From the sequence record CP089609.1: a DNA stretch of 64,000 nt. One strand, given 5' to 3'. Source of the DNA: a plasmid. The notes below the pieces were generated by a model. The model was given only the letters and a program-made list of their open reading frames with translations, searched no databases and was not told where the DNA came from. Below, in pieces: positions 3,699 to 53,629 of this stretch; the stretch's first letter is position 1, and every line of letters begins with the position of its first letter. A program made the translations under genes and the position numbers.

Positions 3699-3725
3699 TT
3701 AATACGCCCCGGTAAGCGCAGCGCC

Positions 3726-6046: not shown

Positions 6047-6176
6047 TCCTCAACTCCTCTCCTGGCCCTAATGGAGATCCCTCAGAACAGGACGCCCGCA
6101 TGCCCGAGCTGATCGTCCCCGCCGATCTCAACGACACCGCCGGATCGAACCCGGCGGCGCATCCCAGGCGGTCGTT

Positions 6177-9639: not shown

Positions 9640-10976
9640 ATGAGTACCGACGGAGCGCAAGACACCCACACCGCGCCCGACCCGCGGGCCGCCACCCTGC
9701 CCAGTCCTCTGGCGGACCTTCTGAACTCCATCCCGAAACCGGCGGCCCCGGCCCCGGCACCGGCACCGGCCCCGGCACCTGCCTCCGGCGGCGGTGGTTC
9801 AGGCAACGGCGGCAAAGGCGGTGGCGGCAACCCCAAGGGCGGCGGCGGTAGCGGCGGACAAACCGGGTCGGGCGGCGGAGCCAACACAGCCTCTCAGACC
9901 GATCAGACCGCAGCCGGGGCCGTCGACGCGTCCGCCGCCAACTCTGCGGCTGGTTTCAACAACAGTCAGGGCAACCTCGACCAGCTGCGCGCCGAGATCG
10001 CACGCCTTGGACCGATCCTTGGCACTCCCGAAGGTGATCAGCAGTTGATGGAAGCGCTGCAGCGCTACCTCAATGCCGGCGGCGGACAGCTGCAGGCCAC
10101 CGATGGCGCTTCACAACAACAGGCTGGAAGCCTCCAGTCGCTGCTCGACCAGCTGCAAAGTGACAAGAAGTCGAAGTCCTCCAGCAAGGACGAAGACGAT
10201 GACAGCTCCGACCACAAGGACAAGGGCAAGGACGAATCGTTCAGTGCCAGCGACCTCAAAGACATGTTGTCGTCGCTGCCCCAGGCACTTCAAAGCCTCA
10301 ACCCCTTCGGGCAGCAGTCCCCGTTCGGTCAGCAATCCCCCTTTGGACAGCAATCTCCCTTTGGGCAGCAGTCCCCGCTCGGTCAGCAGTCCCCGTTCGG
10401 GCCGAACAGCAATTCGCCGACCAGCGGCGGTATCACCCCGGCGGCCAATCCGTTCGGATCACTTCCAGGCACAGGATCCAGCGGCAGTTCAGGCAGCAGC
10501 GGTGGAACGCCGGGTACCCCGGGTCTCCCTTCGACGCTCTCAAAACCGAGGCGGAGAAGGAGGGCGGCGACGGTGGCGACGGCAAGGACGACCCCAACAG
10601 CAAGAGCGTGACGTTGCCCAACGGGGAAACGATCGAGGCCGCTACCCCCGAGTTGGCCAAGGCCATGCGCGACAGCATCAACAACGACAACGCCGCAGCC
10701 GTGTACCAGGAGGCGGGCATCGACACCAGCCACGGCGAAAGTGTGGATCCCGACCAGGTACAGCCAGGCGATTGGGCCCGCTACGACGATGGCAGTATCC
10801 GGGTCGCGGCCGGACCCGGAAAAGTGCTCAACAACGGCCAGGTGGTCGACGTAACTTCGTCCTCAGGTGAAACCGACGGCTTCGAAGGCTGGTACTCACC
10901 ACCGGACAGCGGTGGCGATGCGAGCAGCAGCGGTGGCACGACGGACACCACCGTGACAGCAAGCAAGCATCAGTAG
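9640..10976 (+). CDS. Secreted/low-complexity repeat protein (PAPA run, Gly-rich GGxGG run, 5x FGQQSP), frame switches near 10505-10525
   Basis: ORF 9640-10611 and ORF 10608-10976 are both coding-like and meet at a CCCCGGG run. After GGTPGTPG the +1 frame reads SPFDALKTEAEKEGGDG..., while the original frame decays into RRRRRAATVATART. Confidence 0.55.
10305..10400 (+). repeat. Tandem 18-nt repeat x5 encoding FGQQSP
   Basis: ttcgggcagcagtccccg-like units repeated five times directly in the sequence. Confidence 0.85.
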
Positions 10977-13066: not shown

Positions 13067-15157
13067 ATGGGCGATCCCGCCGACACCGGACCACCCCCGG
13101 AAACCCGGCAACCACCCCAGGATCTCAGCGCCGAACAATCCACGCTCGGCGGCATGTTACTGAGCAAAGACGCCATCGCCGACGTCATAGAACGACTCCA
13201 ATCCAACGACTTCTACCGGCCAGCCCACCAGACGATCTTCAATGCGATCCTCGACCTCTACGCCGAAGGCGAGCCAGCCGACGCAGTCACCGTCGCAGCA
13301 GAACTCGATCGCCGCGGACAACTTAGAAGGGCCGGCGGCGCACCCTATCTGCACACCCTGATCGCCGGCGTGCCCACGGCGGCCAATGCCGGCTTCTACG
13401 CCGCCATCGTCGCCGACAAAGCCCAACTGCGGCGCCTCGTTGAAGCCGGAACTCGCATCGTCCAGTACGGCTACGCCGGCGCGGACGGCGCCGATGTTCC
13501 CGACGTGGTCGCCCGGGCGCAGGCCGAGGTGTACGACGTCACTGCCGGCCGTCATGCCGAGGACTACTCCCCCTTGGAGGAACTGCTTCAGCCCACCATG
13601 GACGAGCTCGACGCCATCCAGAACCAAGGCGGATCAGCGCGTGGCGTACCAACTGGATTCACCGATCTTGACGCCGTCACCAACGGGCTGCACGGGGGCC
13701 AGATGATCATCATCGCCGCGCGCCCCGGTGTCGGAAAAGCGTTGGCCCTCAATACCGCACTTCCTACGCCGACCGGGTGGACCACCATGGGTGCTGTGAA
13801 TGTGGGCGACGAGCTGCTCGGCGCCGACGGCCGCCCAACTCAAGTCGTAGCCACCACCGAGGTCATGCATGACCGCCCGTGCTATACCGTCGAATTCGAC
13901 GACGGGACGACTCTTGTCGCTGACGCACAGCATCAATGGCCCACCCTCAGCGGCATCCGCACCACCATCGAATTGCAGCCCGGACAAGACCGCATCCCCA
14001 CCACCACCGCTCTCGCGGGCCAGGATTCACGAGGCGCTCTGCCGACGGACCCGTACGTCGCCGGCTGCTGGCTGGCCGACAGGCCCGCCACCCGCCACCT
14101 CCCGCTGTCGGTACCTGAACTGCGACCGTTGCTGCGCGCCACGGCCGAACACCGCCGCTCGGTGCTCGCGGGTCTCCTCGGATCGATCGCCGCCCAGCCC
14201 GCCGGCGGAGTCGTCACGATCCGCGCCAATCCGCGCCGCCCCGGACTGCTCGACTTTGTCGAGGAACTCCTCGCCGCAGAAGGCCTGGCCGCCAGACGCC
14301 TGGGCTGCGACCTGGGCATCCGTTATCGACCGACCGCGCCCCGGCAGCGCACCGTCACCGCAGTGCGCCAGGTCGCATCGGAGCCTGTGCGCTGCGTCGA
14401 GGTCGACAATGCCGATCATGTGTACTTGGCGGGCCGATCCATGGTGCCCACGCACAACTCCACGCTCGGCCTGGACTTCATGCGGTCATGTTCGGTCAGG
14501 CACGGGCTGGCCAGCGTGATCTTCTCGCTGGAGATGAGTAAGTCCGAGATCGTGATGCGCCTGTTGTCGGCGGAAACCGGCATCAAACTCGCCGATATGC
14601 GCTCTGGCCGGATGAGCGATAACGATTGGACCCGGCTTGCCCGAAGGATGGGGGAAATCAGCGAGGCTCCACTCTATATTGACGACTCCCCCAACATGAC
14701 GTTGATGGAAATTCGAGCCAAGGCTCGACGCCTTGCACAGAAACAGGACATTCGCCTCGTTGTCGTAGATTATCTGCAGCTGATGACAACCGGAAAGAAA
14801 TACGATTCGCGACAGCAAGAAGTCTCAGACATGTCACGAGGAATCAAATTACTCGCGAAAGAGCTAGATGTTCCCGTAGTGGCGATATCTCAGCTCAATC
14901 GTGGCCCTGAGCAGAGGCAAGACAAGAGGCCGGTCGTTTCCGACCTTCGCGAAAGCGGATCTTTGGAACAGGACTGCGATTTAGCTATTCTGCTTCATAG
15001 ACCGGATGCAATTGATCGCGATGACCCCCGCGGCGGAGAAGCTGACCTAATTCTAGGAAAACATAGAAACGGAGCAACTGCGGTAATTACAGTTGCCCAT
15101 CAGTTGCATTTAAGTCGCTTTTCGAATATGGCGCGTGGCGACTATACTCAGCTGTAG
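13067..15157 (+). CDS. dnaB: Replicative DNA helicase DnaB interrupted by an in-frame mini-intein
   Basis: N-terminal DnaB primase-interaction motif (LSAEQSTLGGMLLSKDAI). The Walker A RPGVGK is split from its continuation STLGLDFMRS...SLEMS by 240 inserted residues. C-terminal DnaB motifs are present: DYLQLM, SQLNRGPEQR and LRESGSLEQDCDL. Confidence 0.85.
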   Translation: MGDPADTGPPPETRQPPQDLSAEQSTLGGMLLSKDAIADVIERLQSNDFYRPAHQTIFNAILDLYAEGEPADAVTVAAELDRRGQLRRAGGAPYLHTLIAGVPTAANAGFYAAIVADKAQLRRLVEAGTRIVQYGYAGADGADVPDVVARAQAEVYDVTAGRHAEDYSPLEELLQPTMDELDAIQNQGGSARGVPTGFTDLDAVTNGLHGGQMIIIAARPGVGKALALNTALPTPTGWTTMGAVNVGDELLGADGRPTQVVATTEVMHDRPCYTVEFDDGTTLVADAQHQWPTLSGIRTTIELQPGQDRIPTTTALAGQDSRGALPTDPYVAGCWLADRPATRHLPLSVPELRPLLRATAEHRRSVLAGLLGSIAAQPAGGVVTIRANPRRPGLLDFVEELLAAEGLAARRLGCDLGIRYRPTAPRQRTVTAVRQVASEPVRCVEVDNADHVYLAGRSMVPTHNSTLGLDFMRSCSVRHGLASVIFSLEMSKSEIVMRLLSAETGIKLADMRSGRMSDNDWTRLARRMGEISEAPLYIDDSPNMTLMEIRAKARRLAQKQDIRLVVVDYLQLMTTGKKYDSRQQEVSDMSRGIKLLAKELDVPVVAISQLNRGPEQRQDKRPVVSDLRESGSLEQDCDLAILLHRPDAIDRDDPRGGEADLILGKHRNGATAVITVAHQLHLSRFSNMARGDYTQL
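13739..14458 (+). other. DnaB mini-intein (240 aa) in the P-loop; Ala1, block-F Cys, ends THN with +1 Ser (class-3-like)
   Basis: Insertion exactly after GVGK. First intein residue is Ala, not Cys/Ser. CVEVDNADHVYLAG is block F with Cys, VPTHN|S is block G, and there is an HQW in the block-B region. 240 aa leaves no room for a full homing endonuclease. Confidence 0.65.
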
Positions 15158-15394: not shown

Positions 15395-15613
15395 TCAGCT
15401 CGGCTGCGTTGTCTCGACGGCCGCCCACGGTTCATGCAGCGTCGCGGCTCTCACGATCCGGTGGTGCTCGACCGCGATGAACAAGGTGTTGCTCTGGCCG
15501 CGGGAATTCACGACCTCGACCACTCCCGCATCAGCGTCGACCAACGTCGGCTCCCCGGTGAGGGTGTAGCACCGACCTCGGTAGACCACCTGAGTTCCGA
15601 CGAAGCCGGTCAT
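15395..15613 (-). CDS. Hypothetical small protein (internal-Met start MTGFVGTQ...)
   Basis: Downstream partner of the 15613-15918 ORF. The longer annotated ORF 15395-15736 overlaps it in another frame. Confidence 0.35.
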   Translation of the reverse strand: MTGFVGTQVVYRGRCYTLTGEPTLVDADAGVVEVVNSRGQSNTLFIAVEHHRIVRAATLHEPWAAVETTQPS

Positions 15614-15918
15614 CACGGCCACTGCTCCGGGATCGCGTCGCGCACGAATTTCTCCCAGGCCAGCGACGTGGGCTCCCCGCGCCCCGGGGGACGCGGCTCG
15701 CCGAGCTCCACCCACAGGCAATGTTCGCGATCCCATTTCTCGGGCTCCTCCCAGTACTCGTCTTCGCGGTCGGGCATGAGATCGGCTTCCCTGAGGACCA
15801 GAGCGAACGTGTAGACGGGTCTACTGAGATCGCTCCATGCGAATGCGGCCTGGGCCAACTCACTGACCTTGCCGACGGTGTTGTGCGACATCGATCGGAT
15901 CCCTTCCGTTCTTCCCAC
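15613..15918 (-). CDS. Hypothetical small acidic protein
   Basis: 101-aa ORF. Its stop overlaps the start of the downstream ORF by 1 nt (TGATG), which suggests coupling. Confidence 0.4.
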   Translation of the reverse strand: MGRTEGIRSMSHNTVGKVSELAQAAFAWSDLSRPVYTFALVLREADLMPDREDEYWEEPEKWDREHCLWVELGEPRPPGRGEPTSLAWEKFVRDAIPEQWP

Positions 15919-16095
15919 TCAGCGCGATGGACCGAGTTCAGCAAACACTCTGCGTAGCTGGTCGAGCCGAGTCTCCCCACACCGATGTGAGCGCATAATG
16001 CTTGCGTTTAATGTAGTTACGCTTTCCAGCGATTGCCCACCGGGTGGTATGGGAGCCAGTTTTCTCCCCCGTTCAGCTACCGTCAATCGACGTCA

Positions 16096-16119
16096 CTGAT
16101 AAGCCCCCTTATCAGTGTG
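16096..16119. other. Perfect 10-bp inverted repeat hairpin (CACTGATAAG-N5-CTTATCAGTG) 3' of minus-strand gene 16131-16478
   Basis: Seen directly in the sequence. No U-tract follows, so at best an I-shaped terminator. Confidence 0.3.
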
Positions 16120-16130
16120 ACTGTGAGCCG

Positions 16131-16478
16131 TCAGCGACCGGCGGATAGGTCGGTGCTGAAGGATTCTGGGCCCAGCCACAGCTGCATGGTGATGGCGCTA
16201 TGCCCGTTTGCGCTGGCGGCATCCAGCAGTACCACTGCGAGGAATCCGCCGGCGCTGGTCCGTATCCAGGCCACCTGTCGGGCACTCATCCACGGCTCAA
16301 GCCGCAGCCCGAAGCCCCGCACCCACAGGGGGAGCGTGTCTTGGCGCATCCCGGCACCGATGTCGGGCAATGCCCGCGCGATCTCAACACGGACGGGCCT
16401 GTCGACCCGAAACAGCGTGGGGTACGCCGCGTCGTTCTCCCAGCGATCGAACATGGCGCCACCGCTCATGCGTTCCAC
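16131..16478 (-). CDS. Hypothetical protein
   Basis: 115-aa ORF with coding-like composition. Confidence 0.45.
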   Translation of the reverse strand: MERMSGGAMFDRWENDAAYPTLFRVDRPVRVEIARALPDIGAGMRQDTLPLWVRGFGLRLEPWMSARQVAWIRTSAGGFLAVVLLDAASANGHSAITMQLWLGPESFSTDLSAGR

Positions 16479-16529
16479 ACGCTGTATCGTACGTATGTTC
16501 GACTGTGCTGGGTTTCAGTCCGCCCAAGA

Positions 16530-17120
16530 TTAAGGTGTGCCGGCCGGCGGTGAGCTGTCAGCCAGCTCGTCCTGAGCGATCTGGACGTGAACGCCGTGGC
16601 CGATATGGATTAGTCGCACCAAGCCACCGCTGTACGGGTTTGTGCTCCTCGCCAAGATGGTGACGGGCTGCCCTTGGTCGGCTATGGCGGGGCGGTATGC
16701 CTGAGCGTGGTAGGTGCGCAGCCCGATCAGGGTCAGCAGCGGATTGCTGGTGAGCAGTATCGTCGTGCGGACTGCGAGGAATCCGAGGAGGAACAGGGCG
16801 GCCAGCGCCGCCCAGCGGGCCGCCGACGGAGAAACCAGTGCGATAGCACTGGGAACGACGTAGAGACTCAGAAGGCTGTCGGCGCTCGTGACGCTGCGCA
16901 CATCCTGGAGCTGCCACAGACCCGAATTGAGGTTGGGAACCGCGCGGCGGAAAAACAGTACGGTGATCGCAACACCGACGGCGGCGACAACGGCGATCGT
17001 GACGTTCACCCAGGTCTGCGGCCAGAGATGCCGTGTGGCCAACATCAGCAGCGATGGCGAGAGCGTGGAGACCGCCAGAGCCGTCGTGATGAACGGTGAC
17101 GGGCCGAATTCACGCATCAT
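16530..17120 (-). CDS. Polytopic membrane protein downstream of jetC
   Basis: 196 aa with about 5 TM helices. Lies directly 3' of the jetABC-like operon; it has no Toprim motif, so it is not JetD. Confidence 0.5.
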   Translation of the reverse strand: MMREFGPSPFITTALAVSTLSPSLLMLATRHLWPQTWVNVTIAVVAAVGVAITVLFFRRAVPNLNSGLWQLQDVRSVTSADSLLSLYVVPSAIALVSPSAARWAALAALFLLGFLAVRTTILLTSNPLLTLIGLRTYHAQAYRPAIADQGQPVTILARSTNPYSGGLVRLIHIGHGVHVQIAQDELADSSPPAGTP

Positions 17121-17252
17121 CGGGCTGCCCCCATCCCTGTTGCGCGCTTACGGCAGTGCGATCCGCAGTGCCGCGCTGATCTCTCTTGCACGGTTCGATG
17201 GCGAAACCACATGGCCCGTCAACCTTTCCGGGCAACCCAACGTGGTGAGACT

Positions 17253-20200
17253 TCACATCGAGCCTTTCGGTCTGCGGCTTCTGCCGGCGCGGCGAGACCG
17301 CGACGGGTCGGCCGACGGTGTCGGTTCGGGGCCAGTGAGCACGGTGATGCGTGATCGGTGATGGCTGTTCTTGGTGATGCACAGGATCCGGTCAACGTGG
17401 GGTTCGATGCTATTGACCTTGTCGTCAGGTGCCCCGATGATCAGTTGGAAGCCCAGACCTTTCCATGCGGCCACAGCGCGGCCGGCGAAGGCGGCATCGG
17501 ATTTGATGAAGCCTTCATCAAGGATGATCGGCGCGTACCGAGGCCAATGGGCGTCGCCGAGTTGGTAGCGCAGCGCGGCGCCGACGATGAAGGCGATCAG
17601 TTCCTGGGATTCGCCGCCGGATTTGCCGGCCAGGCTGGCGTAGACGTTGAGAGTATTCCCGTCGAGGTCGCGGCGTTCGGCTTCTATGTAGACATGGCGC
17701 CGCACGTCGAGGTAATAGTCACGATCAGAGCCGCCGGCGGATTGCCGGATTCGTTGAATGAATCGGGCCAGGGCCAGGAATCGTTTGTGGACCGCGGAAT
17801 CGTCGTCGCCGGGCGCGGTGGTCGCTCCGGCCAGGGCCTTGAGTTCTTTGCGGAAGGCTGCGATATCGGGGGTTTCGGTGTGGCGCAGCGTAATGTGCAG
17901 TCGGTCGCGGCCGGCACCGAAGGGCAGTGTGGTCAAGATGTCGTTGATAGGGTTGAGTCGCGATTCGATGTCGTCGATGGCTTCTTCGAAGGCGCCGTGT
18001 AGCCGCAGTAAGTCGATGCCGGTCCAGTCGTTGACGTCGCGGACGAAGGTGGCTCGGCGGCGGTGCAAACCTTCGGCGGTGAGATCCTCGAAAATGTCTC
18101 GGTAGCCGGGGTAGGACGACACTTCGGTGCCCAGATCGGGGCGGGGCCATTGACGTTGGAAGGTTTCGAAGGTGCTGGTCAGCATCTTGGCTGCCCGTGC
18201 GGCGGCGTTGCGGGCGGCATCGATCTTGGCGTTGAGGGTGGCGTGCAGCCGGGCCAGCGCGGACCCGAACGCGTCTGGGGTGAGGTCGGTGGTGCCCACG
18301 GCGGCCAACTCGTCATCGAGGCGGGCGACCAAGGCGTCGGCCAGGATCGGAGCGCCGGCGGGTTCGACGAGCTCGCCGCGCCTGCAGTCCAGCCGCCTCA
18401 GCTCGTCGATCAGCCGCTCGGTGTCCGCCTCGGCGAGGTGTCGGGCTCGGGCGGCGGATTCGCGGCGGGCGAGCAATTCTTCACGGCGCGCTCCGGTGTC
18501 GGTGTTCCCCTCGACCAGAGCGGTGCGGTGGGCGTGCAGCGCGTCGAGCTGGGCTGTCGCGGCGGCGACGTCGACGGCAGGCCAGGTGGTGTCGGCTACG
18601 TAGCGGTGGGCGTCGCGGCGGACGGTGAGCTCGTCGAGATCGGTGGCGAGACTGTCGAGTTCTGCGGCGGCTGCGGCCAGTTCGGTCTCGGCTGCGGCCA
18701 GTTCGGTCTGCAGCTGGGTGCGGCGTTCAGCATTGGATACGCCGATCACCGGAGGCCGGCTACCGCCGTGGGCTCCTCGGCGTCCGCTCTTCGTTTGTCC
18801 AGTGATCGTCAGGCCGCGGTCCACGTCGTTCAGTTGCGCGGGGTCATCGACGCAGCGGTAGTCGAAGCTGGTCAGGATGCGGGTCATGAGCCAGCCCGCG
18901 AATGGTGAGGTCTCATCGACTCTCAACCGTGCGGGCAGCATCGCAGTGTCGGCGCAGTCTGGGATGGGCTGGTCGACGGGCGCTCCTTCGAAGTTGACCC
19001 GGCGCGGCAGCTTCAAGGTGTTGATTCGGACCCGGGCTTGTTCGATGCGCCGGGTATCGATCAGCACGGTGACCGAAAGGCCCCCCAGCGCGCGATCAGC
19101 GGCCAACCTCCAGTCGTGGAACCCGTCGGCCATGTCGAGCAGTTCTCCGACGAACGGCACCTCGTGGGGATCGAGTTCGAGCGCTTCGGCGATCAAGCAC
19201 CGCGCGTTGTGCAGTTCGGCGGGGATTACGCCGGCACGGCCGGCCAGCGAGTGCAGTTCGTCGACAAGGGCGCCGCGGCGGGCCTGCAAGCCTTGGTGGC
19301 GACCGACGGCGCGGTCGCGTTGCTCGCGCAGTTCGCCGGCGACGTGGGCATAGTCGACGGACAGGAATTGTGCTGCGGCGGCTTGAGCCGCCGCGAACTG
19401 CTCCGCACTCGATGGTGGATCACCGAGCACCGTGGTGCGTTCCCGGTAGATTTTGAGGGCCTGTTCGGTGTCTTGCTGGGCTTGTGCGACCTGTTCCAGA
19501 GTGCGATCGAGTTCATCGAGCGCGACCGTGCCGGGCTCGGTGTCACGTAGGGCAGCCAGTTCGGTCTCGGTGGCCCGTTCCGCTACTCGGGCCTCAGCTG
19601 CCCGCGCCTCGGCTGTAGCACGGTCAGCGGTGAGCTGTCCGATGGTCGCGTCGATCAGCCGCCGTTCGGTCAGTGTTGCCCACACCTGTATCGGCGATGG
19701 CGAATGATCGTCTGCGGCACCGACCAGCATGCTCAGCGTGGCGAGGTCCTCGTGTGCGCTGCTCCAGTCGCCGTACCATTCGGTGATCGGGGTGAGCGTT
19801 TCGACTTGCAGTTCAGCGGTTTTCATGGCCTCGTAGGAGGCTTGCAAGTCGTCGAAATGGGTGATCGCGTCATCGGCGACCGCCAGGGTCTTGGGTCGTT
19901 CAAGGACCATGCTTTTGAACAGGCCGTCCACGGTGGTGACCGCCCGACCGGCCTGGATCCGTGCCAGCAGTCCCAGTGCGCGCTCCCCTTCGCCGGGCAG
20001 GCCGATGCCCAGCCGGGTGCACACTGCGGTGCAGAACGCTCGGTATGACCCGTGAAAGTCGATGCCCTCGAACCGGGTCCGCAGTTGGGCTGGATCGAAC
20101 TGGGAGGGGGCGGAACTGGCGACCTCTGACAGATCGAATCCTCCATCGATGGTGGCCATCCGTTTGGTGATGTCGTCGAAGCGGGTGGCCGACGGCTGTG

Positions 20201-20615
20201 CGTAGTAGAGCCGCATCGCGGTGAACCGCTGATCGGATTCGGTTCGCCAGGTTGCTGCGATCGCCGACCAGGTCGGGGTGGTGCGACCGCGCAGCACCTG
20301 GTCGGTTAGGGCAGATGATCCCTCGACTCGGTTGTCGTCAATCTTTCCGCGCATGTACCGCAGCACATTTCGCTGATCGCCGCCCCGGGCTCGACCGGAC
20401 ACATTGTCGTTGGATGCGCCGTTGAACGGGATCCGCGAGGGCATCAGCAGCGCGATGTAGGCGTCGAGAAGAGTGGACTTGCCGGTGCCGGTCGCCCCGC
20501 TGATCAGCGTCGACGTCGTCGAGACCTCGACTCGGTGGTGCCCCTCGAAACCGCCCCAGTTCACCAGCTGTATCGATTCCAACAGCCACTGGCCGTGCAT
20601 GGTGTCCTCGGTCAT
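17253..20615 (-). CDS. jetC: SMC/MukB-like ABC ATPase, JetC/MksB-like (wadjet/Mks condensin-like system)
   Basis: 1120 aa. N-terminal LESIQLVNWGGFEGHHRV...LISGATGTGKSTLLDA (Walker A), about 800 aa of coiled-coil-type sequence, and a C-terminal signature GKSGGESQ, Walker B PIILDEGF and a D-loop. An ATGA overlap links it to the upstream gene. Confidence 0.75.
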   Translation of the reverse strand: MTEDTMHGQWLLESIQLVNWGGFEGHHRVEVSTTSTLISGATGTGKSTLLDAYIALLMPSRIPFNGASNDNVSGRARGGDQRNVLRYMRGKIDDNRVEGSSALTDQVLRGRTTPTWSAIAATWRTESDQRFTAMRLYYAQPSATRFDDITKRMATIDGGFDLSEVASSAPSQFDPAQLRTRFEGIDFHGSYRAFCTAVCTRLGIGLPGEGERALGLLARIQAGRAVTTVDGLFKSMVLERPKTLAVADDAITHFDDLQASYEAMKTAELQVETLTPITEWYGDWSSAHEDLATLSMLVGAADDHSPSPIQVWATLTERRLIDATIGQLTADRATAEARAAEARVAERATETELAALRDTEPGTVALDELDRTLEQVAQAQQDTEQALKIYRERTTVLGDPPSSAEQFAAAQAAAAQFLSVDYAHVAGELREQRDRAVGRHQGLQARRGALVDELHSLAGRAGVIPAELHNARCLIAEALELDPHEVPFVGELLDMADGFHDWRLAADRALGGLSVTVLIDTRRIEQARVRINTLKLPRRVNFEGAPVDQPIPDCADTAMLPARLRVDETSPFAGWLMTRILTSFDYRCVDDPAQLNDVDRGLTITGQTKSGRRGAHGGSRPPVIGVSNAERRTQLQTELAAAETELAAAAAELDSLATDLDELTVRRDAHRYVADTTWPAVDVAAATAQLDALHAHRTALVEGNTDTGARREELLARRESAARARHLAEADTERLIDELRRLDCRRGELVEPAGAPILADALVARLDDELAAVGTTDLTPDAFGSALARLHATLNAKIDAARNAAARAAKMLTSTFETFQRQWPRPDLGTEVSSYPGYRDIFEDLTAEGLHRRRATFVRDVNDWTGIDLLRLHGAFEEAIDDIESRLNPINDILTTLPFGAGRDRLHITLRHTETPDIAAFRKELKALAGATTAPGDDDSAVHKRFLALARFIQRIRQSAGGSDRDYYLDVRRHVYIEAERRDLDGNTLNVYASLAGKSGGESQELIAFIVGAALRYQLGDAHWPRYAPIILDEGFIKSDAAFAGRAVAAWKGLGFQLIIGAPDDKVNSIEPHVDRILCITKNSHHRSRITVLTGPEPTPSADPSRSRRAGRSRRPKGSM

Positions 20616-21325
20616 GGCTGCACCGCCTCATCGACCGGTTCGGCCGCCAGTTCCTCTGCGCTGCCGCCATTGTGGGCGCGCAGCCAGGTGCCCAATTCTT
20701 TGAGCCGGTCCAGTGACATCAGCGCTTCCACGATCGGGGCGACCTGGTATCGCTCGCCGTCGCCGGTGTCGATCAACAGGTCCAAGCGCACCAGTGAATC
20801 GATAGCGGCTCGGACCGCTTTCTCGTCGCGAACGTGGTTGGTCGCATCAGCGGGCCGGTAGTTGGCGGCCTCGGCCACCAAATCTGAGCGGTCGACGAAT
20901 ACCGCGGGGTCATCGAGATGACGCCCACGCAGCAGCATGCGTAGGTGCACGAGCAGGATCGTTTCTTCCCTCGAATAGCTCTGATCGTGCAACACCGTCG
21001 GGAAGGGCTGACTGCCTCCATCCGGGCGGGCATGACGCTTGTAGGCCACCGCCCGATCGGTATCGACAACCAACTGAATAAACAAATCGTTGAGCCGCGA
21101 CTCCAACAGCGGCCGGTTCTGGATCAGAACCCGCCAGTCAACAGGGTTGCGGTCGGCGGAAATGTAGCGCTTCTTCAACAAGGAAACCAGGGTCCGCCGT
21201 ACATCTGCACCCAACTGCCCCTGATCACCGTCGAACAGCGGCCCCGGGCCGTCAAAGTCCTCCACAGCCTCCGGTGCAGCCCACTGAGGGCCGATCATGT
21301 CTTCGCCGTCACGCATGTCAGTCAT
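20612..21325 (-). CDS. jetB: JetB/MksE-like protein (DUF4194-like)
   Basis: 237 aa when started at ATG 21325 (MTDMRDGED...). The upstream part of the longer ORF is out-of-frame Arg/Trp junk. It overlaps the jetA stop by 8 nt and the jetC start by 4 nt (ATGA). Size and pattern (VSLLKKRYISADRNPVDWRVLIQNRPLLESRLNDLFIQLVVD...) match JetB. Confidence 0.65.
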   Translation of the reverse strand: MTDMRDGEDMIGPQWAAPEAVEDFDGPGPLFDGDQGQLGADVRRTLVSLLKKRYISADRNPVDWRVLIQNRPLLESRLNDLFIQLVVDTDRAVAYKRHARPDGGSQPFPTVLHDQSYSREETILLVHLRMLLRGRHLDDPAVFVDRSDLVAEAANYRPADATNHVRDEKAVRAAIDSLVRLDLLIDTGDGERYQVAPIVEALMSLDRLKELGTWLRAHNGGSAEELAAEPVDEAVQP

Positions 21326-22840
21326 CGTCACCCCCGACCGCCGCGAGCCCGTCGCGATGACGCTCACCGAATGCGATCGCCGGCAGCCGAAGTTGCCGGT
21401 ACGTGCCATCAGCTCGCACCGTTTCGGCCACCTCGCCCCCCTGCGGATCTGCTTCGTCGAGCTCACCCAGGACCGCGGCCAGTTGCATGAGGCCGAACAC
21501 TTCGACGGGTCGTCGCAGCTCCTCGGGCAATCCGTTGAAGATGCTGCCCGCGCTGGTCTCGTCAGCCCCGGCACCGTCGATCGCCGCGGCCACCGCCGCG
21601 CGCAAAGCACGGACACTGGGCCCTCCACGCCGGCGAAGATCTTCCAGGGACGGGGCATCGGCCATGTCACCGGCGGTGTCGGCCAGGGGCGGGGGCGGCG
21701 CGTGCTCAGCCGGATCGTAGAAACGTTCCCTGGTATTGCCGATCGCCAGTCCGGACAACCCCAACTCCAACGGCACCCTCGCACGCGGCCCACTGAGCGT
21801 CATCCACTGTGCCAGTTCTTTTTTCGCCTCACGCAAGGCCTCATCGAAATCGCGATCACGCAGCGCATCATGGCTTGTGATGTAGGCGCGCAACGTTGAG
21901 GACAACCGTCTGCGAGCCTCCAGCACGGTGGTGATGCCCCGCCTGATGGACGTCACCGTCGCACGGAACTCGGCGACCTCGGTGGGCGGCTGCTGACTCG
22001 TGAACGGATGCGCGGTGATGCTATCGAGATCTCGGCGCAGCTGATTCATCAACGTCTCGTCACGGAGCAGTTCGACTGCACCCATAAACGCTTTGCCTTC
22101 AAGAGATTCCGACATGAGTCGCGCAGAACGGTCCAGATAGGTGTCGAGGACCTCGCCGGTGCGTCGGCCTTCCTGCCGGAATTCTTCGACCACACTGCGG
22201 TGAATCGTCTTCACGTGCTCGGAGAGCCGCAGAAAGTCGGCCGGGAGTTGAGCTGTCATGTCACGAATGTTCAGGTACTGCTCTACTACCCGCGCCTCAG
22301 GCACCATCGGCACTGCGCCGGCGGCGAGTTGATCGCGTTCAGCGCGCAGCTCGGCGATCTGCTCGTCGATGCGCGCCAGCCGCGCGTCGAGGTCTGGATC
22401 TGCATCCATAGCGCAGCGTCGAGCTGCGGCGATGATGGTGCGGATCCTCGATTGGCCGAACACTGATCGATCCCCGGCCACGCGGTAGACGTAGTCGATG
22501 GCCTCGCGGGCGTGGGAGGTCAGCGAATATTCTTCTCCGCCTTCGTCGCTCGGGCCAGGACGAGCCATTGTTCGCCGACCCAGCGTCGGCACAGTCCGCG
22601 GGCTGGTTCGTCGATGGTGTCCGCGCCGGCGGCGCGCAGTTCCCCCAGGAGTGCCTCGACGAGGGTGTGGAAGCGGTCGGCGGGCACCACGCGGTGTTCT
22701 TGGCCGAAGATCGTGGTGAACACGGCGATGACTACCGCGGCATTTTTGCGGGACATGAGGCTCAAGGTGGGTTTGTCGAATGCCCGCTCGGCGCGCGCCA
22801 GATCGGCGGCAACTCCGCTCATCGACGCAACTATCGGCAT
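21318..22840 (-). pseudogene. jetA: JetA/MksF-like protein (DUF3375-like) with an apparent frameshift near 22555-22580
   Basis: The N-terminal 100 aa (ORF 22840-22520: ...RKNAAVVIAVF...ADRFHTLVEALLGELRAAGA...RRWVGEQWL) and the remaining 420 aa (ORF 22592-21318: ...PGPSDEGGEEYSLTSHAREAIDYV...) lie in different frames overlapping by 70 nt. Together they reproduce the JetA layout (W-x-E-x-GWL then YP-GSDEP-YDLT). Confidence 0.65.
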
Positions 22841-22904
22841 GTTCAGCGAGCCTAGGCGCGCTGGCGAGGATGGTCGAGGCGATTCATCGGTGCCTGTGAC
22901 CAGC

Positions 22905-22975
22905 GGCGACAGGCAGTAATGTTACGGATCGCCACCACGCCCTGAGCTTGTTATGGTGCCGTACCATTGGATGGG
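22905..22975 (+). repeat. Copy A of a 60-70-nt repeated regulatory-like element (ATGTTACGG..CGC.ACCA..GAGCTTGTTATGGT.C.GT.CCAT..ATGG)
   Basis: About 75% identical to 26545-26612, which forms the hipB promoter/start region. Contains short inverted repeats (GGTA..TACC, CCAT..ATGG). Confidence 0.6.
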
Positions 22976-23262
22976 TCGGCGGTTTCGCGCAGCGAACCCA
23001 CCAGAACGCTCATCGCCCAGACCAGCGTGGCAGTCGCCAATACCAAGATCGCCAAGACCACGACCCGCACCCACACGGCCACACTGTCCGCGCCGGTGGC
23101 CACCCAGAGCGCGCTGCACACTACGCCAGCCAAGTACAGCCCCACGACAAACATCAATCGAGTGGTTCGCGATCGGCCACGCGCCAGACGCTGGGCCCGC
23201 TGCATCACAACGGTACCGGTCAGGTAGAACCCCAGAACGATCCAGCCCAAGCTCAAGCTCAT
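22951..23262 (-). CDS. Small membrane protein (3 TM)
   Basis: 103 aa and strongly hydrophobic. The competing plus-strand ORFs here are Arg/Pro-rich artefacts. Confidence 0.5.
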   Translation of the reverse strand: MSLSLGWIVLGFYLTGTVVMQRAQRLARGRSRTTRLMFVVGLYLAGVVCSALWVATGADSVAVWVRVVVLAILVLATATLVWAMSVLVGSLRETADPSNGTAP

Positions 23263-23342
23263 GTCCGAAGACTAAGCCGGGCCCCCGACAAACCTCGGCA
23301 CCATTGCGCAGTCTCGGCCATGACCGGTTTCACGTCGGAGCG

Positions 23343-23362
23343 GGCATATACCTGGGGACATG
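23343..23362 (+). promoter_or_regulatory. Leaderless motif copy b (GGCATATACCTgGGGaCATG)
   Basis: Followed only by a 39-codon Arg-rich ORF; may drive a short or non-coding transcript upstream of palindrome copy 1. Confidence 0.4.
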
Positions 23363-23436
23363 AGACCTCCCCGGACTCCTTGGCCCCCCAGCGAGCGACA
23401 ACGGACTCACAGCAGAAGCGCCTCACACCGCGTTTA

Positions 23437-23458
23437 TATACACCGCTACCGGTGTATA
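23437..23458. promoter_or_regulatory. Operator-like palindrome TATACACC-gctacc-GGTGTATA (copy 1); right half carries a TATAGT -10-like hexamer
   Basis: Perfect 8-bp arms with a 6-nt spacer, 38 nt upstream of the 23496 start. Confidence 0.6.
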
Positions 23459-23495
23459 GTGTCGTCGTGAGCGTCGCTGACCGCCAGGAGCATTC

Positions 23496-24518
23496 ATGAG
23501 CACCACCATTGCGTTGGCCGATGTCTCAGCGATATCACAAGGCTTCGCGGAATTCACCATGACGGCCAGCTCCATCGTCGCCTTCTGGATCATGCTGGGC
23601 GGTGCGGCGAAGGCCATCGTCGACCTCGTCAAGGGTCGCGGACCGGTCGCCGCGATCCGCACCCTAGGTTTCAGTGCGGCGCTCTGCGCACCGCTGTGGC
23701 TGCTCCCCACAGTCTTCAAGACGCTGCTGCACGCGGACACCGCATCCACACCGACCAGCGACGCACCTACCTCCCCGAGCACCTCGGCGGCGCCCCCGAG
23801 CACACCGCCCGCGTCGCCAGCGCCGCAACCAGACGTAGACCCCACCTCATGGCTGGTCCCGATGGGTATCGCCGCAGCCGGGATCGCGGCGATCGCCGCC
23901 CTGATCGGGTCGAGCATCGTGATCGCGCGAATCATCGCCGGACGCCGGACTGCCCGTCGGCAGGCCACGCAGCGCCGGGCGGCGCAGCTGCAGCGTTGGG
24001 CCGCCGGCGAGAAGGCCCTCACCGCCACCTCTGCGGCATTGATGGAGTTCGAGTCAGATGTGGAGTCGGTGTATTTCACCCGGCCGCTGCTGGCTGATGT
24101 CACAGAGCCCCTGTCAGCTGCGTTCTACACCGCCTACAGCGACGCATTGTCCCTTCAGCTCGATACCGTGCCGACCGACGACGATCAGATCGCCGCCTTC
24201 GTCACCGCCGCGAACGCTGCACACCGCGCGTTCACCGCCGCCAACGACAGTGCGTTACACAAGGCACGGCGCGGCGTGGTTCACGGCGACCGCGAACTCA
24301 CTCCCGCAGAAGCACGCAAGCTCGGCCATGCCCGCAAGCTCTTCGCCCAAGCCCTCGATCCGGCCAACACCACGGAGGCAGCGGCCACGGCTCATTCCAA
24401 AGCCCAGGATCTGCTCGACGAGGTCGGCCTGATCGTCCCTGAACGTCTGGCCTCCACCGTGGTGCGCAGCATCGAGGCTCTACACCAGCCCGCCCTCACC
24501 ACCGGAGCCCAGCAATGA
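23496..24518 (+). CDS. Membrane hypothetical protein (Pro/Thr/Ser linker, 2+ TM)
   Basis: 340 aa. Start lies 38 nt downstream of a TATACACC-N6-GGTGTATA palindrome. Confidence 0.55.
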   Translation: MSTTIALADVSAISQGFAEFTMTASSIVAFWIMLGGAAKAIVDLVKGRGPVAAIRTLGFSAALCAPLWLLPTVFKTLLHADTASTPTSDAPTSPSTSAAPPSTPPASPAPQPDVDPTSWLVPMGIAAAGIAAIAALIGSSIVIARIIAGRRTARRQATQRRAAQLQRWAAGEKALTATSAALMEFESDVESVYFTRPLLADVTEPLSAAFYTAYSDALSLQLDTVPTDDDQIAAFVTAANAAHRAFTAANDSALHKARRGVVHGDRELTPAEARKLGHARKLFAQALDPANTTEAAATAHSKAQDLLDEVGLIVPERLASTVVRSIEALHQPALTTGAQQ

Positions 24519-24775
24519 GCACACCTATCCCGCCGGCCACTCCCGACCAGGAATGGACCTATGTCGATCTCCCCTACTGGACGGCAACGGCCCGGTGGCC
24601 GGCCTTGACCGCGATCAGCCTCTGGGTACATGCCCACGCCGGCTGGCCCCCTTACCAGATGACAGTCATCTCCATGGCGATCGTCGCCACGTTCACGTTC
24701 ATGGGTTGTGCAGATTGGCAAGACCGCCGCGCCACCCGCCGCCGCGACGCCCCGACCATCGAAGAACTCCGCTGA
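24515..24775 (+). CDS. Small membrane protein
   Basis: 86 aa. ATGA overlap with the upstream gene. Confidence 0.5.
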   Translation: MSTPIPPATPDQEWTYVDLPYWTATARWPALTAISLWVHAHAGWPPYQMTVISMAIVATFTFMGCADWQDRRATRRRDAPTIEELR

Positions 24776-24784
24776 AAGGCTCTT

Positions 24785-25255
24785 GTGAAGCTCAACAACG
24801 CCGCACTGATCACCGCGGACGCTGACGACCTCTCCTTCTGCATCAACACAATCCGCGAGAATCCGCACCTCGGGACGTGGTTGTCCATCGAATTCGACGG
24901 TGCGGGCAGCACCGCCGTCGTGCGCGTGACTTCAGCGGCCCTCATCAGCGATACCGACGACGACTACTGGGCGCTGGACTGCGAGATCACCGAGATCCAT
25001 TCGGCTCCCGGGATCGACGTCGGCTACCGCGTGCACGATCAGTGCACGCTGACCACCCCAGCCGATAGCCACTCTCACGAGGCACACCCTGACGGCTTTC
25101 TGTCCCTGCCCGACCCTCCTCGGGGATCGGGATTGCCGCACCAAACGCCAGAGCGCGATGTGCAAGAGCCCGACGAGCAGCAAAACGTGGCTCCCGGCTC
25201 CACTCGCCTGGCTCTTCAGCAAGACACCACCCATGCCAGCCGACATTCCGCCTGA
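24785..25255 (+). CDS. Hypothetical protein
   Basis: 156 aa with a GTG start. Confidence 0.4.
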   Translation: MKLNNAALITADADDLSFCINTIRENPHLGTWLSIEFDGAGSTAVVRVTSAALISDTDDDYWALDCEITEIHSAPGIDVGYRVHDQCTLTTPADSHSHEAHPDGFLSLPDPPRGSGLPHQTPERDVQEPDEQQNVAPGSTRLALQQDTTHASRHSA

Positions 25256-25282
25256 TGAATGACCGGATGTCGCCCACCGACC

Positions 25283-25302
25283 GGCATATACCTCCGGGCA
25301 TG
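25283..25302 (+). promoter_or_regulatory. Leaderless motif copy c (GGCATATACCTCcGGgCATG)
   Basis: Ends in the start codon of 25300-26487. Confidence 0.5.
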
Positions 25303-26487
25303 AGTGATCGCGAAGCCCTCAACCCGGGTCACCAGGACACCTCAAGCCTGCCGCAGCCCTCGGACGGCCAGTGGATGGAAGAGTGGGCCAACCCCGACGC
25401 CGACATCCCGCTGTCCAACGACGTCGACACCGGCATCCCCCACACCTACAGTGCGCGCGAGATCGTCGACGCGCTCGACGCATCCACCCCCAGCGGAATC
25501 CTCGACGACACCGCCCTTCCCGCCGACTTGATCGCCAAGCGCGCCGCCCGCGGCGACATTCCCTACTGCCCACCAGCGCCACGTAAGTCCCTGTCCCTGA
25601 CAGGCTTTCGCGTCGCGCTGCTGGCAGCGATCCCCATTTTGTGGGCCCTGGCCGTGGCCGGTGTCATCACCGGGTTCGTCACCGGCATCGTGGCGATTAT
25701 CGGCTGCCTCGCTGTGCCGACCGTCTTCACCGGCGGAATCTGGACATGGGCGCACAGGCCCACACTGCTGCACCGCGACCCCTACACACCCGAAGATCAC
25801 GCCGCACTACAGCGCGCCATGGCGGATTGGCCGGGCCGGGCTCATCTGGCCCTCTACAGCGACCGCGCAGCGCTGCAGGCGACGTGGGATGACCGCTGGC
25901 CTTGGGCCGGCGACAAGGGGGCCGCCGCCGCGGTCTGGCGCGAACCACACCTCGTCGGCGTTTCCCAGCTCATCGCCAACGACATCACATCCGGAACCGC
26001 ATGGCGTAGCGACCTTTTCGACACCCATCGAGTACGTATCGATGTGCCCGCAACACTGACCAACATCCGGATGCGCGCGTTCCGCATTTGGCGCATCCGC
26101 GCCGACACTCTCGCCCCGACCGAGGCCTCCGATCCAGACGGCGCCGCGGCACGCCGCTACACCGAAATCACCGATGCCCTCGCCGAGGCCGAAAAGCAGC
26201 TGATCGCCATCGTCTGGGAACTGTGGGACTACCGCTGCTCAATGGCCCCCATCAATTCCCTGGTCGACGAGATCTCGGCCCTCAACCTCAGCACCGAGAG
26301 GGTTTCTGACGACGCGGTACGCCAGCTGCGCATCGACGGTGCCGCCAGTGCATTGGAGCGCACACAGATCTCCGATGCGCACGACGAGCTGGCCGACCTG
26401 AAGGCGAATCTCACCGCACGTCTGGAGGTGCTGCATTCACAGCTTCATCTACCGGCCGCAGCCTTGCCCTTGGTTGCGAAGAGGTGA
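25300..26487 (+). CDS. Membrane hypothetical protein (start at conserved leaderless motif)
   Basis: ATG at 25300 directly follows GGCATATACCTCCGGGC. 2 TM helices followed by a helical C-terminal domain. Confidence 0.55.
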   Translation: MSDREALNPGHQDTSSLPQPSDGQWMEEWANPDADIPLSNDVDTGIPHTYSAREIVDALDASTPSGILDDTALPADLIAKRAARGDIPYCPPAPRKSLSLTGFRVALLAAIPILWALAVAGVITGFVTGIVAIIGCLAVPTVFTGGIWTWAHRPTLLHRDPYTPEDHAALQRAMADWPGRAHLALYSDRAALQATWDDRWPWAGDKGAAAAVWREPHLVGVSQLIANDITSGTAWRSDLFDTHRVRIDVPATLTNIRMRAFRIWRIRADTLAPTEASDPDGAAARRYTEITDALAEAEKQLIAIVWELWDYRCSMAPINSLVDEISALNLSTERVSDDAVRQLRIDGAASALERTQISDAHDELADLKANLTARLEVLHSQLHLPAAALPLVAKR

Positions 26488-26544: not shown

Positions 26545-26612
26545 ACCAGCCAACAGCAGATGTTACGGTACGCTACCATTATCGAGCTTGTTATGGTACG
26601 GTTCCATCATGG
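26545..26612 (+). repeat. Copy B of the repeated element; overlaps the hipB promoter and start codon
   Basis: See copy A. It ends in CCATCATGG, which contains the hipB ATG. Confidence 0.6.
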
Positions 26613-26896
26613 TGTCTGACGTGCGTGAACAGCTAGCCCAGCTCGGGTCGCAGCTCCGTCATGCCCGGCTGGCAGCGAAGCTGAGTCAAGACGAGCTCGG
26701 CCGGCGCGCGGGTATATCCCGCCAACTGATCAGCCGCATCGAATCCGGCCACCCCAACGGGGAGATTTCCGCTGTCGCCGCAGTCGCCGACGCCCTGGAC
26801 TATCGCCTCACCGCAGTGCCCCACAAGGAGCCCAACCGAAGCGAGCAAGCCGCCCTCGATCTGATCAACCGACTCCGCGACACACCCACCGTCTGA
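26609..26896 (+). CDS. hipB: XRE-family HTH antitoxin HipB-like
   Basis: LSQDELGRRAGISRQLISRIESG is a classic XRE HTH. The stop overlaps the hipA start (TGATG). Confidence 0.7.
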   Translation: MVSDVREQLAQLGSQLRHARLAAKLSQDELGRRAGISRQLISRIESGHPNGEISAVAAVADALDYRLTAVPHKEPNRSEQAALDLINRLRDTPTV

Positions 26897-28323
26897 TGCC
26901 CTCGGATCTGGTTGTCGTCCTCAACGGTGAAGTCGCCGGGGTGATCAGCCACGAATTCGGCCGCCCTCGCTTCGCCTACCTCGACAGCTACGCCTCGGTC
27001 GCCGGCCAAACCCCACTGTCCTTGTCGATGCCGCTACGCATCGGCCACCTCTACGGACACCGCACCACCGCACCCTGGCTCTCAGGACTTCTGCCCGACG
27101 ATGCCCGGGTCCGTGAACGGTGGGCACGGGAGTTCGACGTCTCCCCCGACAACCCGTCAGCACTACTGGAGCACCTCGGCCGCGACTGCGCCGGCGCCGT
27201 CCAAATCACCCCACCGGATTCTCTCCCCCAGCTCCTCACCCAGTCCGGCCACCTCGAACCAACCACCGAGTCCGCCATCGGCGCACGACTGCGCCAGCTG
27301 CACACCGAATCCGACCACTGGACTCGCGACAACGACCGCTGGAGCCTGGCCGGCGCACAGTCGAAGTTCACCGTTGCCTCCACTGACGACGGGTGGGCCT
27401 GGACCCATGGCACGGCAGCCAGCACCCACATCATCAAACCCGGCATCACCCGATTCCACGACCAGGCGCTCAACGAACACTTATGCCAGCGCGCATTCGC
27501 CCTCATCGGCATCCATGCCGCCCGCACGGCCTATCACGAATTCGACGGCACCCCAGCCATCGTCGTCACCCGCTATGACCGCGTCATCGACGGCGACGGA
27601 ACCGTCACCCGCATCCACCAGGAAGATATGTGCCAAGCGCTCGGAGTCTGGCCACACAAGAAGTACGCCTCCGACGGCGGGCCGTCGGCCGTCGCGATCG
27701 CCCAAATGCTCGGCCGCTCGGCCACACAGCACGACGTCGACCGCTTCACTGATGCTGTTGTCGCGCAATATCTTTGCGGAGCTCCCGACGCGCACGCGAA
27801 GAACTACAGTGTCATCCTGGCCGGTGACCACGCCGCCCTGGCACCGGTTTACGACGTCGCCAGCGTGTTGCCCTACCACCCCGACCCAAACTCCGGTCTG
27901 GCCCGCGTCGCAATGCCCATCGCCGGGCACAGCCGCTTCGGCGACGTCGATCTGCACTACGTCGAGAAGTTCGCTACCACCGCCGGAACTGACCCCGACC
28001 GCCTCGTCGCCCGCGCCCGCGAAATGGCCGCCGACCTCCCCGACGCCATCTCCACCGCAGCTGCAGACATCCCACCCGAAACCCTGGGATCCATCGCCGA
28101 CCAACTCAGCACCGGAATCTCCGAACACTGCGCCACACTCGACCGCCCGCCCACCAACACCCGGCGCCGACGTCTACCCCCGACCGACCCCGAACCCGAG
28201 CTGGTCCGAGACGCAGAACCCCTCGACGACACCATCCCGGTCGTCGGACACTCCCGCGGCGGCCACCCCATCACCGCCCACCGCCGCCACCGCCCGGGCC
28301 AATCGCTGAGCCGCCCCAGCTGA
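26896..28323 (+). CDS. hipA: HipA-family Ser/Thr kinase toxin with Pro-rich C-terminal extension
   Basis: HipA N-terminal couple domain; catalytic motifs WSLAGAQSKF and CGAPDAHAKNYSV (the D-x-H-x-K-N loop); DVASVLPY. Confidence 0.8.
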   Translation: MPSDLVVVLNGEVAGVISHEFGRPRFAYLDSYASVAGQTPLSLSMPLRIGHLYGHRTTAPWLSGLLPDDARVRERWAREFDVSPDNPSALLEHLGRDCAGAVQITPPDSLPQLLTQSGHLEPTTESAIGARLRQLHTESDHWTRDNDRWSLAGAQSKFTVASTDDGWAWTHGTAASTHIIKPGITRFHDQALNEHLCQRAFALIGIHAARTAYHEFDGTPAIVVTRYDRVIDGDGTVTRIHQEDMCQALGVWPHKKYASDGGPSAVAIAQMLGRSATQHDVDRFTDAVVAQYLCGAPDAHAKNYSVILAGDHAALAPVYDVASVLPYHPDPNSGLARVAMPIAGHSRFGDVDLHYVEKFATTAGTDPDRLVARAREMAADLPDAISTAAADIPPETLGSIADQLSTGISEHCATLDRPPTNTRRRRLPPTDPEPELVRDAEPLDDTIPVVGHSRGGHPITAHRRHRPGQSLSRPS

Positions 28324-53603: not shown

Positions 53604-53629
53604 TCCACCCCGCGAGGAAGGAAACCCGC

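Follow-up and report, generated by a model that had tools for sequence, protein, structure and literature searches.

The 64-kb stretch of plasmid DNA analysed here (the window) carries on its minus strand a jetA-jetB-jetC operon, the genes for the core of Wadjet, in which a structural maintenance of chromosomes (SMC) sensor arms a Toprim nuclease, JetD, against small plasmids. The phenotype associated with this system, Ept or efficient plasmid transformation, was first seen in mycobacteria. Judged by its profile matches and gene order, the window locus is a complete jetABC operon of type I Wadjet ancestry, and it belongs to a group of mycobacterial plasmid loci in which JetD is missing throughout. 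We tentatively propose, by analogy with characterised complexes, that it encodes a nuclease-free, MksBEF-like SMC complex that serves the plasmid under HipB-type control. Relatives used for comparison were fetched loci coded L001-L039. The three predicted genes are:

17253-20615, minus strand: jetC, a 1120-aa SMC-like ATPase with Walker A GATGTGKST, signature SGGE and Walker B ILDE
20612-21325, minus strand: jetB, a 237-aa KITE subunit of the DUF4194 family, starting MTDMRDG
21318-22840, minus strand: jetA, a kleisin of the DUF3375 family, here in two open reading frames (ORFs), 22520-22840 (106 aa) and 21318-22592

A first-pass annotation of this DNA had described three translationally coupled jet genes, and the ORFs bear this out, with overlaps of 8 nt between jetA and jetB and 4 nt between jetB and jetC. 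Its family assignments for JetA and JetB also withstood profile searches: the two jetA pieces match positions 2-79 (E 2e-15) and 82-474 (E 5e-82) of the 474-position Pfam family DUF3375, and jetB matches DUF4194 (E 2e-35, 122 bits), while jetC matches the SMC-head domains AAA_29 and SbcC_Walker_B. PADLOC agreed, the best models being those of type I for all three genes, JetA1 (E 1e-121), JetB1 (E 4e-74) and JetC1 (PDLC00517; 1170 bits), the last covered by jetC from position 14 to 1115 of 1119. The Walker A, signature and Walker B residues of JetC are invariant in the clade alignment. A single-sequence phmmer search of the PDB with JetB returned no match; a profile search matched the JetB chains 8dk1_E and 8as8_C. 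The locus had also been called MksBEF-type, a description that holds for three genes standing without a Toprim subunit but not for the KITE subunit, which scored 17.1 bits against Pfam MksE (PF21980), under the cut-off of 27. Because JetB scores so much higher against DUF4194 than against MksE, and because the nearest relatives outside the clade are JetD-positive, we place the operon with type I Wadjet JetABC rather than with the Pseudomonas MksBEF family.

To look for JetD we used three approaches, all of which were negative within the 64 kb, upholding the earlier claim that the nuclease is missing. A tblastn search of the window with JetD from Nocardia gave nothing, and Pfam scans of the larger window ORFs found neither DUF3322 nor JetD_C. 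A hidden Markov model (HMM) was built from 118 JetD proteins and run unfiltered (--max) on six-frame segments of the window and the fetched loci; no match at E<=10 came from any of the six window frames, and nine JetD-positive loci that served as positive controls scored 448-623 bits. The ORF at 16131-16478 (115/107 aa), which the first-pass annotation had singled out as a place where a cryptic JetD might hide, was rejected as such, having no Pfam, PADLOC or JetD HMM match and being a conserved backbone gene also found in L010. Outside the clade, JetD overlaps the jetC stop codon in Nocardia and lies ~15-310 nt downstream of jetC in eight other relatives (L023-25, L028-30, L035, L037). The HMM found no match in any fetched locus of the mycobacterial clade; on this evidence the absence of JetD is clade-wide and not a local deletion. 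The lineages of the clade are listed below with the identity of their JetC to that of the window, the JetD HMM being negative on every row.

Window lineage (M. fortuitum plasmid): JetC 100%, no JetD, no sirtuin, then the 196-aa membrane protein
P0002 lineage (L009-11): JetC 86%, no JetD, no sirtuin, then a 154-aa gene
M. sphagni (L012/L036): JetC 68%, no JetD, sirtuin present, then a 155-aa gene
Metagenome-assembled genome L022: JetC 68%, no JetD, a sirtuin stump of ~40 aa, then a 155-aa gene
P0005 (L018/19): JetC 67%, no JetD, sirtuin present, next gene not of the 154/155-aa type
M. hubeiense (L015/L033): JetC 67%, no JetD, no sirtuin, then a 155-aa gene
P0007 (L016/17): JetC 65%, no JetD, sirtuin present, next gene not of the 154/155-aa type
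P0009 (L020/21): JetC 64%, no JetD, sirtuin and an extra 208-aa gene, next gene not of the 154/155-aa type
M. abscessus group (L013): JetC 49%, no JetD, no sirtuin, then a 630-aa protein

The nearest relatives outside this clade (Nocardia, Micromonospora, Trebonia and others) have JetC proteins 33-48% identical to that of the window and are JetD-positive, and a neighbour-joining tree places them as the sister group of the mycobacterial clade. JetD-less jetABC genes were also present in 5 of the 12 complete non-mycobacterial actinobacterial loci sampled. L026, L027, L031, L034 and L038 are JetD-less triads from Microbacteriaceae and Nocardioides with JetC identities of 36-41%, and in L038 jetABC is followed by the housekeeping genes yebC-ruvC-ruvA-ruvB.

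Within the clade, four sister lineages (L012, L016/L017, L018/L019 and L020/L021) carry a sirtuin of ~228 aa that is translationally coupled between jetB and jetC, and L022 retains a stump of it:

L012, 7318-8004: operon sirtuin
L016/L017 and L018/L019, 5321-6004: operon sirtuin
L020/L021, 4672-5385: operon sirtuin
L022, 2213-2317: sirtuin stump

The sirtuin matches PF02146 (E 1e-34), lacks the Zn-binding Cys motif and had no match among the PADLOC defence SIR2 models. In L020 the extra 208-aa gene follows it. Because of the tree topology, we consider that the sirtuin was probably ancestral to the group with JetC identities of 64-100% and that later losses removed it from M. hubeiense, L022 and the window/P0002 lineage. 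The jetB/jetC junction of the window, with its 4-nt gene overlap, holds no sirtuin remnant, and tblastn gave only chance matches elsewhere in the window; the window copy is the plain three-gene form, and the sirtuin is confined to sister lineages.

To assess whether the operon is under selection, we calculated the ratio of nonsynonymous to synonymous substitution rates (dN/dS) between the window and P0002 lineages, both of which lack JetD and the sirtuin. This gave values of 0.12 for jetA, 0.12 for jetB and 0.18 for jetC at dS ~0.5, against 0.13-0.21 for a sirtuin-bearing pair, and at least 10 independent assemblies and eight diverged lineages preserve all three jet ORFs intact. Judged by these ratios, jetABC is kept by purifying selection. 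As dN/dS is no higher where the sirtuin is missing and the ATPase motifs are invariant, the genes are maintained for something that needs neither partner.

The operon sits on a large plasmid. The JetC of the window is 100% identical to UHJ58737, "AAA family ATPase (plasmid)", from a 220,108-bp plasmid of Mycolicibacterium fortuitum, and a near-identical copy is present in M. conceptionense. A Pfam scan of the window placed conjugation-type genes at 16-8246, encoding a VirB4-like AAA_10 ATPase, an NlpC/P60 hydrolase and an FtsK-like protein. The identity of JetC to a plasmid protein and these conjugation-type genes together make the earlier reading of the DNA as a mobile element correct, the element being a large conjugative plasmid. 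In 11 of the 15 fetched mycobacterial-clade loci that retain the downstream flank, the window lineage included, jetABC is followed by the DnaB gene of the plasmid:

13067-15157, plus strand: DnaB helicase, 696 aa, assigned by Pfam

The jetABC site is part of the conserved backbone of a ~220-kb conjugative M. fortuitum plasmid, flanked by the DnaB gene on one side and on the other by a divergent operon whose last genes are hipBA. The divergent operon (23496-26487, plus strand) has four genes, of 340, 86, 156 and 410 aa, that run into hipBA, and L009-L011 and L015 also have it in synteny with the jet locus; the two largest of the four, the only ones scanned, have no Pfam family. The DnaB_C match in the helicase falls in two separate stretches, which suggests an insert such as an intein. 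Megablast of window positions 15500-23500 against PLSDB plasmids and INPHARED phages gave no match, and tblastn of JetC against PLSDB matched only two Rhodococcus megaplasmids, at 38-42%. A scan of genome contigs returned nothing when a single JetC was the query and 17 loci when the clade alignment was used.

We next turn to the control of the operon, for which the region between jetA and hipBA contains the following features:

22849-22885, minus strand: candidate jetA core promoter, GAATCGCCTCGACC, a 17-nt spacer and TAGGCT, ending 9 nt before the ATG
22920-22967, minus strand: two-box module at jetA, with boxes at 22920-22938 and 22949-22967, each approximately ATGGT-N6-CCRTAACA
22951-23262, minus strand: small membrane-protein ORF, 103 aa, upstream of jetA on the same strand, its last codons overlapping box A
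26561-26607, minus strand: paralogous two-box module at hipB, abutting the hipB start (ATG at 26609)
26609-26896, plus strand: hipB, with an Xre-type helix-turn-helix (Pfam HTH_31/HTH_3)
26896-28323, plus strand: hipA, a kinase toxin (Pfam HipA_C and Couple_hipA)

The candidate promoter (TCGACC, 17 nt, TAGGCT) is conserved upstream of jetA in L009, L012, L015, L016 and L018, and from its position we infer that it would give a nearly leaderless mRNA. A consensus promoter scan around jetA did not call it, and consensus scans for terminators and promoters around jetA and after jetC gave nothing useful. The two modules resemble each other closely: 22900-22967 and 26546-26607 are 75% identical (51/68), with a score of 45 against a maximum of 22 for ~2000 random windows, and CCRTAACA occurs four times in the 64 kb, each time on the minus strand and within the two modules, in pairs 28-29 bp apart. 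As the hipB-side module abuts the start codon, it overlaps the hipB promoter. The jetA-side module lies 80-127 nt upstream of jetA, in the opposite orientation relative to its gene. The first-pass annotation had recognised a repeat homologous to the hipB promoter in this opposite orientation, and both points stand; its description of the repeat as an orphan does not, since the module upstream of jetA is kept in five lineages (L009, L012, L015, L018 and L020). In L009 it is present with no hipBA nearby, and in L012 and L015 a copy also precedes hipB. From the paired sites we infer that HipB is the simplest candidate for a regulator acting at both modules, and the jetA-side module may either repress jetA or drive transcription the other way, into the divergent operon leading to hipBA. 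In L015 (M. hubeiense) the module occurs three times, at 1094-1130, 4122-4159 and 4639-4676, before hipB, the small membrane ORF and jetA, which hints at a small plasmid regulon. Homologues of the 103-aa ORF occupy the equivalent site in L009 (66% aa identity, dN/dS 0.41) and L015/L033 (34%, E 2e-6).

In the sequence as given, jetA is interrupted at a single site:

22552-22554, minus strand: frameshift site, CCC here and CCCC in L001-L005 by base-by-base comparison

These five independent short-read assemblies are 99.90-99.98% identical to the window and contain jetA as a single uninterrupted gene of 507 aa. A second 1-nt deletion, which leaves GGGG where L001 and L003 have GGGGG, lies at ~10516, 12 kb from the jetA site, and splits a gene that encodes 445 aa in L001/L003 into ORFs 9640-10611 and 10073-10870; just 3 substitutions separate the window from L001 across the same 19.4 kb. 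As two homopolymer deletions among ~5 differences are the signature of long-read assembly error, the jetA frameshift is probably a homopolymer sequencing or assembly artefact. In a cluster of 11 JetA proteins, the GenBank record is the sole long-contig member with a truncated JetA (416 aa); the 8 other full-length members have lengths of 501-507 aa, and a Logan member of 195 aa lies on a contig fragment of 1.7 kb. Either way, the element as such is not frameshifted: the split reported in the first-pass annotation is present in the letters but private to this record. Programmed frameshifting was rejected, as all other copies have one uninterrupted frame. Were the frameshift real, it could be counted with the lack of a recognisable effector and the sirtuin deletion in progress in L022 as signs of a decaying remnant, that is, of a Wadjet that lost first its nuclease and then its sirtuin and whose jetA has now become a pseudogene in this isolate. 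We regard such decay as very unlikely, given that the three ORFs remain intact across so many assemblies and lineages, that dN/dS is low at a dS of about one half, and that a homopolymer deletion with a second one nearby is typical of assembly error.

The N terminus of JetB bears on whether the complex has a partner. Its motif GP[LY]FDGDxG (GPLFDGDQG in the window) is invariant in the JetD-positive Nocardia and in all JetD-less clade members, and in a profile alignment, which is weak and positional, its counterpart is the N-terminal tail of P. aeruginosa JetB. This tail holds, in type I systems, an "IFDR" motif that is the docking site for the aCAP domain of JetD, and GP[LY]FDGDxG could, on this weak correspondence, be its equivalent. 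If so, its retention keeps partner-based models alive, among them one in which JetABC borrows a chromosomal JetD (EptD) from the host for use against small plasmids, or titrates the host JetD as a decoy, so that a nuclease-free JetABC would blunt host Wadjet immunity against incoming plasmids. Besides the motif, this model draws on published observations that JetD recruitment is transient and sub-stoichiometric and that dead JetD can outcompete the wild type, and on the reported restriction of M. fortuitum plasmids by M. smegmatis EptABCD (Panas 2014). Yet among the best 120 relatives of the nearest JetD none carries a Mycobacterium name, and no JetC for which a JetD partner was identified exceeds ~48% identity to that of the window, which makes cross-recognition uncertain. 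A 220-kb plasmid, moreover, exceeds the reported Wadjet target limit of ~100 kb and should not need protection, and the equation of the motif with IFDR depends on a weak alignment. Recourse to a JetD from elsewhere seems to us quite unlikely.

We also considered the gene that follows jetC as a possible partner:

16530-17120, minus strand: 196-aa KwaA-like membrane protein, 132 nt downstream of jetC, with ~4 hydrophobic helices

Its size, membrane character and lack of a Toprim domain are as first annotated. The protein weakly matches six PADLOC KwaA models (best E 4e-6). Its one homologue among 5.8 billion proteins is 76% identical, carries a weak Pfam KwaA flag and comes from a non-jet locus that has only the gene itself in common with the window (542 nt, 85% identity). 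In L039 (4631-7786) this homologue stands between 525-aa and 318-aa proteins, with a PIN toxin pair adjoining, and may be part of a membrane-associated module. No KwaB was found in the window or beside the homologue, and the 318-aa neighbour has no match in the window. Between the window and its 86% relatives, homology stops within ~19 codons of the jetC end and picks up again at a 107-aa backbone gene. AlphaFold2 modelling of the 196-aa protein with no alignment gave a mean pLDDT of 55 and a pTM of 0.25, a model of too low quality for judging the fold. Its distribution indicates that it is a single-gene cassette in a variable slot and not a Jet subunit. As a cryptic JetD it was rejected, with ~4 transmembrane helices, no JetD HMM match and the behaviour of a mobile single-gene cassette.

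In other lineages the same slot holds different genes. An alanine-rich gene of 154/155 aa follows jetC in L009 (11398-11862), L012 (11372-11839), L015 (10321-10788) and L022 (5805-6269), overlapping the jetC stop in L012 and L015; it is missing from the window, where the 196-aa cassette takes its place. The 155-aa gene is almost neutral, with a dN/dS of 0.64. The M. abscessus relatives have in this slot a gene for a 630-aa protein (L013, 11504-13396) that matches no Pfam family, with HD-domain, hipBA, Gp49/HTH_37 and GmrSD_C genes nearby. This variability, the recombination breakpoint at the end of jetC and the translational coupling of the sirtuin in L012/L036, L016-L019 and L020/21 invite the view that JetABC is an immune system with an effector other than JetD, in which it would sense small circular or foreign DNA and signal to another protein, namely the sirtuin in the sister plasmids and here the KwaA-like protein or something unrecognised, with abortive infection or plasmid exclusion as the outcome. 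The weak KwaA matches and a neighbourhood rich in toxin-antitoxin genes fit such a scheme, and Lamassu, which is SMC-like, uses swappable effectors that include SIR2 (PMC10586767). The candidate effectors themselves fit it poorly: the 196-aa protein has a single homologue, in a non-jet context with only that gene in common, and no KwaB partner in the window; the 155-aa gene evolves almost neutrally; and the sirtuin is a canonical PF02146 protein that matches no PADLOC defence SIR2 model and has been lost at least twice, with only the L022 stump of ~40 aa remaining in one case, without relaxed selection on jetABC. An immune role of this kind is, in our judgement, unlikely.

We therefore return to a nuclease-free complex that serves the plasmid. 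In this proposal JetC dimers, closed by the JetA kleisin and a JetB KITE dimer, would load onto DNA, and JetABC would translocate or extrude loops with ATP, as canonical JetABC cores do. Lacking a nuclease partner, the complex would hold or compact the DNA instead of bringing about its cleavage, which could help to fold or segregate a large low-copy replicon or to organise it in connection with replication, and expression of jetABC would be tied to the HipB-type repressor of the plasmid through the two-box module. Published JetABC cores support loading and ATP-driven loop extrusion, cleavage needing JetD, and in M. smegmatis a chromosomal mksB operon with putative mksEF partners exists besides the defensive EptABCD, its MksB following replication forks (PMC11329512). 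Several points weigh against the proposal. In the tested Wadjet systems all four subunits were required for plasmid restriction (Doron 2018), and any activity of the nuclease-free complex by itself is, in this family, a prediction. The operon sirtuin and the variable gene after jetC look more like effector swapping in defence than like a housekeeping condensin, and the jet locus lies among toxin-antitoxin and defence-like genes. If the equivalence with IFDR is right, a docking motif kept without the protein that it binds calls for an explanation and hints at some partner. Finally, a genuine frameshift would leave the window with a broken copy. A related and more speculative idea, which we think rather unlikely, is that the clade is a Wadjet offshoot turned to the advantage of the plasmid, with the nuclease discarded in exchange for the sirtuin in sister plasmids and without a substitute here, the JetB tail kept and regulation held in common with HipBA, acting either as a decoy that titrates the JetD/EptD of the host or as a loop-extruding machine by which the plasmid maintains itself.

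Of the neighbours that the first-pass annotation had named, hipBA is supported by Pfam, whereas neither Abi_2 nor higBA was found among the ORFs scanned, a set that was not exhaustive, especially for small ORFs. Elsewhere in the window are genes for an RNB-family ribonuclease (38838-40835, minus strand), a protein with a T4-type RNA ligase domain (48982-50076, plus strand) and a D12 N6-adenine methyltransferase (52681-53664, plus strand).

Compared with known systems, the operon most resembles type I Wadjet (E. coli GF4-3 JET, P. aeruginosa PA14, C. glutamicum MksBEFG and M. smegmatis EptABCD), with which it has its core families, gene order and coupling in common. It differs in that the window and its clade lack JetD, which tested systems need for restriction, in that the carrier plasmid is above the reported target size of Wadjet, and in the HipB-type module upstream. 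The three-gene MksBEF systems of P. aeruginosa and the chromosomal mksB operon of M. smegmatis likewise combine an SMC-like ATPase, a kleisin and a KITE subunit without a nuclease, and have roles in chromosome organisation and replisome positioning (PMC11329512); by contrast, the JetB of the window is of the DUF4194 family, and its operon is plasmid-borne rather than chromosomal. With Lamassu, in which an LmuB sensor works with swappable LmuA effectors including SIR2, it has in common the concept of an SMC-family sensor with alternative effectors, as the sirtuin in the sister plasmids might be. However, JetC matches LmuB models only marginally (E 3e-4) and over the P-loop only, the operon encodes a kleisin, a KITE subunit and a full-length SMC, and the sirtuin is canonical and absent from the window. 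The 196-aa neighbour recalls the sensor of Kiwa (KwaA and KwaB) in its ~4 transmembrane helices and weak KwaA matches, of which the best is the E of 4e-6 given above, but no KwaB-like gene accompanies it. The hipBA locus has the layout of a HipBA toxin-antitoxin system, an Xre-type antitoxin followed by a HipA kinase, with two putative operator boxes abutting the hipB ATG.

Three-gene Mks/Jet systems were already known; what appears to be new is a JetD-less clade on plasmid backbones, an operon sirtuin in several of its members and an operator module in common with hipBA. In open-access papers and bioRxiv we found no description of a plasmid-backbone type I clade without JetD, nor of a Wadjet operon with an internal sirtuin or an operator module common to it and hipBA. 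Automated defence finders will skip such a locus as an incomplete Wadjet, and a practical lesson of the present copy is that its jetA frameshift should not be taken as biology. Taken together, our analysis points to a clade of large conjugative plasmids that keeps a selected SMC sensor without its nuclease, some members having a sirtuin in the operon. If the complexes are active, JetABC would either have a useful activity that is independent of the nuclease, in plasmid folding, segregation or interference, or be able to rewire to other partners as Lamassu does. The question can be tested directly in mycobacteria, and either outcome would bear on how SMC immunity and SMC chromosome organisation interconvert.

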